A model generated the notes under the pieces. That model was not told the DNA's origin. It ran no database searches and saw nothing but the letters and a program-made list of their open reading frames with translations. A stretch of DNA of 64,000 nt from Escherichia coli (GTDB lineage Bacteria > Pseudomonadota > Gammaproteobacteria > Enterobacterales > Enterobacteriaceae): assembly GCF_003018115.1 (NCBI RefSeq), contig NZ_CP027457.1. The stretch is one strand, 5' to 3'. Below are positions 6,301 to 8,492 of the stretch, piece after piece. Each line of letters starts with the position of its first letter. Position 1 is the stretch's first letter. Position numbers and translations under genes: made by a program.

Positions 6301-7452
6301 ATGTCACTTGTCACCGATCTACCCGCCATTTTCGATCAGTTCTCTGAAGCTCGCCAGAAAGGCTTTCTCACCGTCATGGATCTCAAGGAGCGCGGCATTC
6401 CGCTGGTTGGCACTTACTGCACCTTTATGCCGCAAGAGATCCCGATGGCAGCCGGTGCGGTTGTGGTTTCGCTCTGTTCCACCTCTGATGAAACCATTGA
6501 AGAAGCGGAGAAAGATCTGCCGCGCAACCTCTGCCCGCTGATTAAAAGCAGCTACGGCTTTGGCAAAACCGATAAATGCCCCTACTTCTACTTTTCGGAT
6601 CTGGTGGTCGGTGAAACCACCTGCGACGGCAAAAAGAAAATGTATGAATACATGGCGGAGTTTAAGCCTGTTCATGTGATGCAGTTGCCGAACAGTGTTA
6701 AGGACGATGCCTCGCGTGCATTGTGGAAAGCCGAGATGCTGCGCTTACAAAAAACGGTAGAAGAACGTTTTGGGCACGAGATTAGCGAAGATGCTCTGCG
6801 CGATGCCATTGCGCTGAAAAACCGCGAACGTCGCGCACTGGCCAATTTTTATCATCTTGGGCAGTTAAATCCTCCGGCGCTTAGCGGCAGCGACATTCTG
6901 AAAGTGGTCTACGGCGCAACCTTCCGTTTTGACAAAGAAGCGTTGATCAATGAACTGGACGCGATGACCGCCCGCATTCGTCAGCAGTGGGAAGAAGGCC
7001 AGCGACTGGACCCGCGTCCGCGCATTTTAATCACCGGTTGCCCGATTGGCGGCGCAGCAGAGAAAGTGGTGCGCGCGATTGAAGAGAATGGCGGCTGGGT
7101 TGTCGGTTATGAAAACTGCACCGGGGCGAAAGCGACCGAGCAATGCGTGGCAGAAACGGGCGATGTCTACGACGCGCTGGCGGATAAATATCTGGCGATT
7201 GGCTGCTCCTGTGTTTCGCCGAACGATCAGCGCCTGAAAATGCTCAGCCAGATGGTGGAAGAATATCAGGTCGATGGCGTAGTTGATGTGATTTTGCAGG
7301 CGTGCCATACCTACGCGGTGGAATCGCTGGCGATTAAACGTCATGTGCGTCAGCAGCACAACATTCCTTATATCGCTATTGAAACAGACTACTCCACCTC
7401 GGATGTTGGGCAGCTCAGTACCCGTGTCGCGGCCTTTATTGAGATGCTGTAA
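6301..7452 (+). CDS. yjiM: 2-hydroxyacyl-CoA dehydratase (HgdB/BcrB-like) family protein YjiM
   Basis: ORF track frame; ATG at 6301 preceded by ggaaggaaaatc RBS; MSLVTDLPAIFDQF start; cysteine-rich dehydratase-like sequence. Confidence 0.85.
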   Translation: MSLVTDLPAIFDQFSEARQKGFLTVMDLKERGIPLVGTYCTFMPQEIPMAAGAVVVSLCSTSDETIEEAEKDLPRNLCPLIKSSYGFGKTDKCPYFYFSDLVVGETTCDGKKKMYEYMAEFKPVHVMQLPNSVKDDASRALWKAEMLRLQKTVEERFGHEISEDALRDAIALKNRERRALANFYHLGQLNPPALSGSDILKVVYGATFRFDKEALINELDAMTARIRQQWEEGQRLDPRPRILITGCPIGGAAEKVVRAIEENGGWVVGYENCTGAKATEQCVAETGDVYDALADKYLAIGCSCVSPNDQRLKMLSQMVEEYQVDGVVDVILQACHTYAVESLAIKRHVRQQHNIPYIAIETDYSTSDVGQLSTRVAAFIEML

Positions 7453-7461
7453 GGAGTAGCA

Positions 7462-8229
7462 GTGACATATTCGATTGGCATTGATTCTGGTTCTACCGCC
7501 ACCAAAGGGATCTTACTGGCAGACGGCGTGATTACGCGCCGTTTCCTCGTTCCAACCCCCTTTCGCCCGGCAACAGCAATTACTGAAGCCTGGGAAACTC
7601 TGCGCGAAGGGTTAGAGACATCGCCGTTTCTGACGCTCACCGGCTACGGGCGGCAACTGGTGGATTTTGCCGATAAACAAGTGACGGAAATCTCCTGTCA
7701 CGGGCTGGGCGCACGGTTTCTTGCGCCAGCAACGCGCGCGGTAATCGACATCGGTGGTCAGGACAGCAAAGTGATTCAGCTTGATGATGACGGTAACCTG
7801 TGCGATTTCCTGATGAATGACAAATGCGCGGCGGGCACCGGGCGTTTCCTGGAGGTGATCTCGCGCACACTTGGCACCAGCGTCGAGCAACTCGACAGCA
7901 TTACCGAAAATGTCACGCCGCACGCCATCACGAGTATGTGCACAGTGTTTGCTGAATCAGAAGTGATCAGCCTGCGCTCAGCGGGCGTCGCGCCAGAAGC
8001 GATTCTCGCCGGAGTGATTAACGCGATGGCGCGGCGGAGTGCCAATTTCATTGCTCGTCTCTCCTGTGAAGCGCCGATTCTGTTTACTGGTGGCGTTAGT
8101 CATTGCCAGACGTTTGCCCGGATGCTGGAATCTCACCTGCGAATGCCGGTAAATACCCATCCTGATGCGCAATTTGCTGGCGCAATTGGCGCGGCGGTAA
8201 TTGGTCAACGAGTGAGGACACGCCGATGA
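7462..8229 (+). CDS. yjiL: BadF/BadG/BcrA/BcrD-type ATPase (dehydratase activase-like) YjiL, GTG start
   Basis: ORF track 255 aa; N-terminal IGIDSGSTATK ASKHA-type ATPase motif; GTG start 10 nt after the yjiM stop with aaggag RBS. Confidence 0.85.
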   Translation: MTYSIGIDSGSTATKGILLADGVITRRFLVPTPFRPATAITEAWETLREGLETSPFLTLTGYGRQLVDFADKQVTEISCHGLGARFLAPATRAVIDIGGQDSKVIQLDDDGNLCDFLMNDKCAAGTGRFLEVISRTLGTSVEQLDSITENVTPHAITSMCTVFAESEVISLRSAGVAPEAILAGVINAMARRSANFIARLSCEAPILFTGGVSHCQTFARMLESHLRMPVNTHPDAQFAGAIGAAVIGQRVRTRR

Positions 8230-8492
8230 AAGAGTTTTTATTTTTATTTCACTCCACGGTCGGCGTGATACAAACCCGCAAGGCGTTGCAGGCAGCGGGC
8301 ATGACTTTTCGCGTCAGCGATATTCCCCGTGATTTACGCGGCGGCTGCGGGTTATGCATTTGGCTGACCTGTCCCCCCGGCGAGGAAATACAATGGGTGA
8401 TCCCAGGGCAGACCGAAGCGATATATTGCCAGCAGGGCAGCGACTGGCAGTGCGTGGTGCATTACGATGCAGAAGCGTCAACCAGGCAATAA
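8226..8492 (+). CDS. small hypothetical protein (88 aa) translationally coupled to yjiL
   Basis: ORF start overlaps the yjiL stop by 4 nt (ATGA-type coupling); codon usage matches neighbours; Cys-rich (CGLC...C) C-terminal half. Confidence 0.5.
   Translation: MKEFLFLFHSTVGVIQTRKALQAAGMTFRVSDIPRDLRGGCGLCIWLTCPPGEEIQWVIPGQTEAIYCQQGSDWQCVVHYDAEASTRQ

Follow-up and report, generated by a model that had tools for sequence, protein, structure and literature searches.

The DUF3343 protein YtiA as predicted third component of the yjiM-yjiL double-cubane reductase module of Escherichia coli

Double-cubane cluster proteins (DCCPs) are anaerobic reductases that carry an [8Fe-9S] cluster. In Carboxydothermus hydrogenoformans (6ENO, 7YYL; Jeoung & Dobbek) they are encoded in a two-gene layout that pairs the reductase with an ATP-dependent electron donor, the DCCP reductase (DCCP-R), and it is established for these families that ATP use by the activase drives an electron of low potential onto the double-cubane cluster. 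The 2-hydroxyacyl-CoA dehydratases (HgdAB/HgdC, HadBC/HadI) belong to the same superfamily, HGD-D, and employ activators of the same family. A separate group of proteins, the DUF3343 or Se_S_carrier family (PF11823), was proposed by Lin et al. 2015 (PMC5322559) to act as chaperones or carriers of selenium or sulfur; the same study describes a single highly conserved cysteine in these proteins and ties them to YedF and to selenocysteine lyase. Here, we report on a locus in which the two groups stand together, namely the genes yjiM, yjiL and ytiA of E. coli, located in a stretch of 64,000 nucleotides (hereafter the window) of contig NZ_CP027457.1, RefSeq assembly GCF_003018115.1. The comparisons described below identify ytiA, as judged from sequence, as the third and translationally coupled cistron of a conserved yjiM-yjiL-ytiA module. 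Moreover, they bring out a point that is under-reported: double-cubane reductase systems repeatedly have DUF3343 as a third partner, and both are found in selenium/sulfur trafficking neighbourhoods.

A first-pass annotation, made from the sequence letters alone, had placed the three frames in 6301-8492 and the small one at 8226-8492, and its coordinates all hold. The module and its junctions are organized as follows:
6301..7452, plus strand: yjiM, ATG start, TAA end; predicted double-cubane-cluster ([8Fe-9S]) anaerobic reductase (DCCP) of 383 amino acids (aa)
7452..7456, plus strand: Shine-Dalgarno sequence AGGAG for yjiL, overlapping the yjiM stop codon, as read from the sequence
7462..8229, plus strand: yjiL, GTG start, TGA end; predicted ATP-dependent electron-transfer activase of the DCCP reductase/archerase type, 255 aa
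8214..8218, plus strand: Shine-Dalgarno-like GAGGA for ytiA, within the 3′ end of yjiL and 7 nt ahead of the ATG
8226..8229, plus strand: ATGA, the ytiA start and yjiL stop in a 4-nt overlap, an arrangement of translational coupling
8226..8492, plus strand: ytiA, ATG start, TAA end; DUF3343/Se_S_carrier-family protein of 88 aa
8346..8357, plus strand: codons C41-G-L-C44 of ytiA, placed by alignments, column counts and the secondary structure of the model
8405..8492, plus strand: diverged 3′ portion of ytiA (codons 61-88, approximately), an allele associated with a downstream espX6-like island

The list of open reading frames (ORFs) puts the yjiM start at a GTG at 6280; RefSeq takes 6301. The G+C content is uniform over the three genes (0.53-0.56) and drops to 0.32-0.35 directly past ytiA.

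The assignment of YjiM rests on several independent comparisons with curated families and solved structures. The protein matches Pfam HGD-D (E 4.8e-122) and scores 532.3 bits on NCBIfam NF040772, the model for double-cubane-cluster-containing anaerobic reductases, against a cut-off of 350. On the models of the dehydratase subunits HadC and HadB it reaches 95.6 and 20.4 bits, with cut-offs of 700 and 750, and it falls far under the threshold on the benzoyl-CoA reductase equivalogs too. In addition, YjiM aligns end to end with the solved C. hydrogenoformans DCCP (6ENO, E 5e-75). In a three-way alignment of YjiM, its counterpart from the more distant contig L003 and the PDB DCCP, nine cysteines (C40, 59, 78, 93, 108, 273, 302, 304 and 335) are invariant, and the conserved ligand cysteines of the [8Fe-9S] cluster, the so-called 7-Cys motif, are among those recovered through the 6ENO alignment. 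The literal published form of this motif, CX19CX18-19CX29CX166-170CX32-34CX32C, does not match, the YjiM spacings being 18/18/29/164/30/30. The gene for the ATP-dependent partner, yjiL, lies 9 nt downstream of yjiM, and a second dehydratase subunit gene is not present at the locus. Thus, unlike the 2-hydroxyacyl-CoA dehydratases, the locus has one HGD-D gene in place of an alpha/beta pair, and the cysteine pattern of its product is that of the double-cubane proteins. The likeness to 2-hydroxyacyl-CoA dehydratases put forward by the first-pass annotation is therefore not borne out beyond the superfamily; on sequence grounds YjiM is a double-cubane [8Fe-9S] reductase, in agreement with Jeoung et al. 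2020 (PMC7317905), who named YjiM/YjiL a class II DCCP. The protein itself has been detected by mass spectrometry (preprint).

The activase-like character of YjiL, recognized from the start, is confirmed. Specifically, YjiL matches Pfam BcrAD_BadFG (PF01869, E 1.5e-76) and scores 362 bits on TIGR00241 (cut-off 125); its PDB matches are 4EHT (E 2e-52), 1HUX (E 1e-51) and 7YYL_E (E 9e-46), and it corresponds to the DCCP-R of the two-gene system. C122 and C160 of YjiL align with the cysteines of the 1HUX motifs MNDKCAAGTGRF and CTVFAESE. We take these two residues to be the ligands of the bridging [4Fe-4S] cluster. The model score, together with the two cysteines (1HUX motifs MNDKC and CTVFAESE), characterizes YjiL as an activase/archerase, that is, the predicted ATP-hydrolysing, electron-injecting activase of YjiM. 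In the literature, the yjiL-mdtM cluster has been linked genetically to a secondary uptake of proline-rich antimicrobial peptides in sbmA mutants; the segment from mdtM to yjiL spans 3623-8229 of the window.

The small frame downstream of yjiL had been treated as unannotated by the first-pass annotation, which is not the case: RefSeq carries it as ytiA, so that it is an already known gene and not a new ORF. All E. coli rows sampled are annotated as ytiA, DUF3343 domain-containing protein or putative Se/S carrier protein. The strain F8111-1SC3 is identical to the window over this stretch, and its product is WP_000657677.1, 'DUF3343 domain-containing protein'; in a K-12-like strain ytiA encodes 85 aa. 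By megablast, region 6200-8800 was found in 5,386 of 5,426 complete E. coli genomes and was covered to at least 80% in 5,365 of them. The profile score places YtiA in PF11823 (E 3.6e-13; 49.2 bits against a gathering cut-off of 25; residues 4-59), and its 88 aa with one highly conserved cysteine agree with the format of the family, whose members are small stand-alone proteins of about 80-100 aa. NCBIfam holds no model for YtiA, and a PDB sequence search gave no match below E 0.04. A search at the protein level recovered 133 homologues, distributed over Escherichia, Citrobacter, Klebsiella, Raoultella, Kosakonia, Atlantibacter and Phytobacter, all of them with PF11823 where a domain is recorded, and with the frame kept at lengths of 78-91 aa across genera. 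Ratios of nonsynonymous to synonymous substitution rates (dN/dS), obtained from codon alignments of the window with seven other loci, were 0.02-0.06 for yjiM, 0.06-0.21 for yjiL, 0.10-0.26 for the whole of ytiA and 0.09-0.24 for its residues 1-62; the last ~26 codons are saturated and variable in length. These values indicate purifying selection on ytiA. The length of the ORF is by itself no evidence for a gene, since many ORFs of 40-118 aa occur in other frames of the region. Literature searches returned no mention of E. coli ytiA; the matches listed for the name (15 of 32) all refer to other things, mostly an unrelated ribosomal-protein paralogue.

The first-pass annotation had suspected a third operon component overlapping the yjiL stop by 4 nt, and the comparison among enterobacteria upholds this suggestion. 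The order HGD-D (383 aa), BcrAD_BadFG (254-255 aa) and Se_S_carrier (78-85 aa) recurs in E. marmotae, C. freundii, K. pneumoniae, Atlantibacter hermannii and Kosakonia, and the contig L003 has the same trio with the same stop/start overlap. The overlap measures 4 nt in L001, L003 and L088-L091, and 1 nt in Kosakonia (L092). A purine-rich Shine-Dalgarno-like motif stands at the ytiA-equivalent position in six other taxa. The genes that flank the module vary among loci, on both sides in Atlantibacter. Consequently, the ground on which the small frame was to be dismissed, a lack of in-frame conservation or of a translation signal, falls away: frame, overlap and motif are kept in E. marmotae, Citrobacter, Klebsiella, Atlantibacter, Kosakonia and the distant contig. 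The search for homologues of YjiM listed proteins at least 86% identical to it, more distant relatives lying out of its reach. The association also holds in a plasmid copy derived from Klebsiella, in which the DUF3343 gene still adjoins yjiL, a Providencia stuartii record included. The P. stuartii plasmid records NZ_CP142096.1 and NZ_OQ750828.1 (141,594 bp) contain the Klebsiella-type yjiL and DUF3343 genes; a published description of an IncC plasmid of P. stuartii with this Klebsiella segment named only a gene for a major facilitator superfamily transporter, yjiL and yjiM, and omitted the small gene. In practice, the annotation 'dehydratase' should be read as 'double-cubane reductase', and the small gene should be counted in the module.

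To look beyond the enterobacteria, 80 DCCP loci (L008-L087) from Firmicutes, Deltaproteobacteria, Actinomycetes, Chloroflexi and Bathyarchaeota were fetched with the same three-sequence alignment, and their ORFs were scanned with purpose-built profiles. An activase gene is present in 63 of the 80. A DUF3343 ORF lies at most 300 bp from the DCCP or activase gene in 12 loci, and within 5 kb in five more. The adjacency takes three gene orders and spans Firmicutes and Actinomycetes. In particular, the order DCCP-DUF3343-activase is found in Tepidibacter, in a Tissierellia metagenome-assembled genome and in Lachnospiraceae loci (Lachnoclostridium, Dorea, Mordavella); DCCP-activase-DUF3343, as in E. 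coli, occurs in L035; and DUF3343-DCCP-activase in L066. In Clostridium ihumii (L040) the DUF3343 gene is directly 3′ of the DCCP gene and no activase was detected. Over nine such loci, the sole recurring Pfam families are HGD-D (13 members), Se_S_carrier (9) and BcrAD_BadFG (8). A second DCCP, similar in sequence to YjiM (phmmer E 1e-131 to 1e-159; identities of 57% and 52% for the two that were measured), occurs in five loci, each of which also has a DUF3343 gene. For single-copy genes, chance adjacency is estimated at a few per cent at most, with counts uncorrected for relatedness. As the adjacency is kept through rearrangement and across phyla, it can be argued that it reflects a shared function and not simply inherited synteny.

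The neighbourhoods of these loci are rich in genes for selenium and sulfur handling. Four Lachnospiraceae loci have, directly upstream and next to DCCP-DUF3343, a gene of the TIGR01977 (SclA) family; against the NCBIfam cut-off of 377, the two that were scanned reach 444 bits (L064) and 433 bits (L070). The founding member of TIGR01977, EF2568, is the selenocysteine lyase SclA of E. faecalis. A rhodanese-domain gene follows downstream in two of the four, and a desulfurase-family gene lies near DCCP-DUF3343 in Desulfosporosinus. Altogether, a cysteine-desulfurase or SclA-like gene was found in nine of the 80 loci, seven of which also have a DUF3343 gene (Fisher p = 1.7e-4, uncorrected for relatedness). 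Selenium genes line two loci in particular: L028 reads YedE, YedF(N), DUF3343, x, DCCP, FmdE, YjiM-like DCCP, activase, SelB, SelD, and L066 reads DUF3343, DCCP, activase, x, SelD, YedF(C), SelA, SelB. For the SelD, SelA, SelB and YedE proteins of these two, the scores exceed the curated NCBIfam thresholds; in L028 the short YedF(N) ORF is below its cut-off, and the YedF(C) ORF of L066 was matched by phmmer only. Over the whole set, selD, yedF, yedE, selA or selB lies within 6 kb in 23 of the 80 loci, or in 18 if the five with only a YedF C-half-like ORF are dropped (the one such ORF that was examined reached 103.7 bits, below the cut-off of 110). The SelD ORF of L066 (8815-9813, plus strand, in that locus) is matched by the SelD model only from position 43 onward; its true N-terminus may be interrupted by a selenocysteine TGA, as in selenoprotein SelD.

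Distant DUF3343 genes show a similar range of neighbours: the activase in L003/L004 and L006, a YedF-like gene in L007 and L094, YedE with TusA in L095, YqeC in L093 and nothing informative in L005, several of these representatives being on contigs under 1.5 kb with little context. No in-frame TGA (selenocysteine) was found inside the DUF3343 match of any homologue in the loci examined, the conserved cysteine included. Matches of the DUF3343 profile in longer proteins, considered as possible fusions, turned out to be terminal extensions, frameshifted metagenome calls or Ig-like repeat false positives, and none was informative. In the literature searched, the link between double-cubane reductases and selenium genes is mentioned only in passing. 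The co-occurrence of double-cubane reductases with the SAO selenoprotein cassette has been reported; a preprint of 2023 counts DCCP and DCCP-R with the putative selenium genes found close to mlp clusters; and PMC5322559 lists the activase and a 'dehydratase subunit' for Slackia in a STRING table alone, without comment. A treatment of DUF3343 as a partner of the reductase was not found in this literature. With respect to the family described there, the E. coli member differs in that no selenium gene adjoins it.

The cysteines of YtiA help to define what kind of partner this protein might be. YtiA has five of them (41, 44, 49, 68, 76), and the CGLC motif pointed out by the first-pass annotation corresponds to residues 41-44. 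Only C41 is invariant, being present in 44 of 44 aligned sequences of the family within a P-x6-C-G motif in which P34 is also invariant and G42 nearly so. C44 occurs in 32 of the 44, including 15 of 26 distant sequences. The additional cysteines noted at the outset do exist, and yet they are not features of the family: C49 is found in 17 of 20 enterobacterial sequences and is absent from K. pneumoniae, L003 and essentially all distant homologues, and C68 and C76 occur in 3 and 10 of the 20, respectively. In Firmicutes, the DUF3343 genes that adjoin double-cubane genes encode CCGIS, ACGIS or FCGIS at the site of C41. The family feature, as read from the alignment, is one presumably reactive loop cysteine, sometimes backed by a second, and not a set of metal ligands. 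An AlphaFold2 model built from 44 sequences has a mean predicted local distance difference test score of 87.7 and the strand (b) and helix (a) order b-a-b-b-a-b-b; its loop 33-42, between strands 2 and 3, ends in C41. Persulfide and perselenide relay proteins (TusA/YedF, rhodanese, SufE/CsdE) are alike in being small, in having a single reactive loop cysteine and in the location of their genes by desulfurases, rhodaneses or YedE/YedF. Unlike these relay proteins, YtiA has no TusA, rhodanese or SufE family match and no CPxP motif, and it is modelled as a generic ferredoxin-like sandwich.

A mechanism that would connect these observations is one in which YtiA, as the third cistron, acts as a carrier or adaptor presenting a cysteine-bound sulfur or selenium species to the YjiLM reductase, a reading that we consider to have roughly an even chance of being correct. 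YtiA would be a small protein of ferredoxin-like fold with C41 on an exposed loop, backed by C44 in enterobacteria. C41 would carry the sulfur or selenium species, for example a persulfide, a perselenide or a selenotrisulfide. The loaded species would then be offered to the open channel of YjiM and reduced by YjiLM while bound to the carrier, probably by an ATP-driven chemistry of very low potential. Because it is a single invariant cysteine that is proposed to carry sulfur or selenium, YtiA would be a carrier or adaptor, and not an Fe-S or metal redox protein. With respect to the C. hydrogenoformans enzyme, YjiM lacks the N-terminal helices that close the channel and has an open channel (PMC7317905), and the enterobacterial module has a third gene, ytiA. 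An open channel fits a substrate that is borne by a protein. If YtiA is indeed a substrate-presenting carrier, E. coli would offer a genetically tractable three-gene system in which to study both the substrate of the double-cubane enzymes and the function of DUF3343.

That such loci recurrently lie beside selD, yedF, yedE and genes for SclA-type lyases suggests a concrete hypothesis, in which selenium or sulfur is reduced. With a potential near -0.7 V, the Se(0)/HSe- couple falls in a range where electron transfer normally has to be coupled to ATP; this very negative couple would thus be a possible reason for ATP-coupled reduction. In the selenium version, the DUF3343 cysteine would be loaded by an SclA-type lyase or through the YedE/YedF import route, holding selenium as perselenide, selenotrisulfide or Se(0), and the double-cubane enzyme would reduce the bound selenium to selenide for SelD. 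The broader proposition, that DCCP, activase and DUF3343 jointly serve selenium (or sulfur) trafficking as an ATP-driven reductase of very low potential, with YjiM-YjiL-YtiA of E. coli as its enterobacterial version, is speculative and in our judgement rather unlikely. If the selenium reading were true, it would provide the first physiological substrate for the orphan double-cubane family.

A number of observations weigh against YtiA being a substrate carrier for the reductase. Direct evidence of YtiA translation was not found, and the E. coli module has no sulfur or selenium gene as its neighbour. The sequence of YtiA changes much more rapidly than those of YjiM and YjiL; between L003 and the window, for instance, YjiM is 81% identical and YtiA 38%. 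Furthermore, 63 of the 80 DCCP loci, counts over which are not phylogenetically independent, have no DUF3343 gene within 6 kb, and in Carboxydothermus islandicus (L008), whose DCCP shares 97% identity with the C. hydrogenoformans protein of demonstrated biochemical activity, none is present within the stretch examined. From these loci it follows that DUF3343 is not needed for DCCP catalysis in general. The fold search with YtiA returned only generic ferredoxin-like or PII-like matches, and the carrier role of DUF3343 in Lin et al. 2015 is a bioinformatic proposal only.

Other explanations of the third gene have to be compared with the carrier reading. The one suggested by the first-pass annotation was a small redox or metal-binding partner, that is, a cysteine-rich Fe-S or metal protein serving, for example, as electron donor to YjiL or as a cluster-carrying subunit. 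The enterobacterial pattern C41-x2-C44-x4-C49, joined by C76 in half of the sequences, would suit such a role, and so would the tight coupling to an electron-transfer ATPase; against this, C41 alone is invariant, a conserved set of three or four cysteine ligands is missing from the family, C49 is lost in K. pneumoniae and L003 and, together with C76, in distant homologues, and the Firmicutes proteins encoded beside DCCP genes have CCGIS, ACGIS or FCGIS. As Pfam and NCBIfam also gave no match to a ferredoxin, rubredoxin or other metal-site family, this suggestion does not survive the comparison and we regard it as decidedly improbable. Quite unlikely, too, is a role for YtiA outside the catalytic cycle, as a maturation factor that would bring desulfurase-derived sulfide to the [8Fe-9S] cluster, for instance the bridging ninth sulfide. 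A single carrier cysteine would fit a sulfur relay of this kind, and a desulfurase-family gene does adjoin DCCP-DUF3343 in Lachnospiraceae, with another in its vicinity in Desulfosporosinus. Yet the adjoining desulfurases are members of the SclA selenocysteine-lyase family rather than IscS or NifS, most DCCP loci, with that of the close relative of the characterised enzyme, manage with no nearby DUF3343 gene, and many DUF3343 genes stand beside YedE/YedF or YqeC without any DCCP.

This last observation would also be accounted for if YtiA took part in sulfur or selenium trafficking independently of YjiLM, its adjacency being a matter of co-regulation or history, and the far faster divergence of YtiA from that of YjiM and YjiL is in keeping with it. 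The stop/start overlap, conserved across genera in spite of changing flanks, and the three gene orders seen in Firmicutes and Actinomycetes argue for a closer bond, which makes independent trafficking unlikely. The fold raises the question of a PII-like regulator that would bind a small ligand and gate the YjiL ATPase or the flow of electrons. The top Foldseek matches of YtiA are PII/GlnK (probability 0.99, E about 0.03, template modelling score about 0.5), and the predicted topology resembles that of ferredoxin-like proteins of the PII/CutA/ACT type, with a long conserved loop between strands 2 and 3 at the place of the PII T-loop. Compared with these proteins, the likeness is weak (E about 0.03, Z at most 6.4, identity up to about 21%) and there are no motifs in common; since no Foldseek match at E <= 0.001 and no Pfam match assigns YtiA to the PII proteins, such a regulator seems highly improbable. 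Finally, the idea that the 88-aa ORF is a chance frame or a decaying remnant could appeal to its poorly conserved last ~26 codons and to a 3′ end that is an allelic breakpoint. It is effectively refuted by the Pfam match, by the frame and length (78-91 aa) conserved among homologues, by the core dN/dS of 0.09-0.24 and by the confident AlphaFold2 fold.

As for the surroundings of the module, a promoter/terminator scan of 6000-8900 gave no more sites than shuffled sequence, with no promoter found ahead of yjiM and no terminator past ytiA, and an Rfam scan of 5900-9000 gave no match. The 3′ end of ytiA deserves a separate comment. Between the window and a K-12-like strain there are few differences up to about 8405, followed by 26 in the last 69 aligned bases, and this jump looks, from the alignment, like a recombination breakpoint inside the gene. 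The stretch concerned runs on from ytiA to 8810. The 3′ allele with its downstream junction is present in 639 of 5426 E. coli genomes, O157:H7 among them. Beyond it, in an AT-rich block (G+C 0.35) inserted between ytiA and a yjiK-like gene, window 8805-10907 on the plus strand encodes a 700-aa pentapeptide-repeat protein with a run of 8-residue NDxxxKQA-type repeats near its C-terminus (about 10640-10800). Its O157:H7 counterpart is annotated as the type III secretion system effector EspX6.

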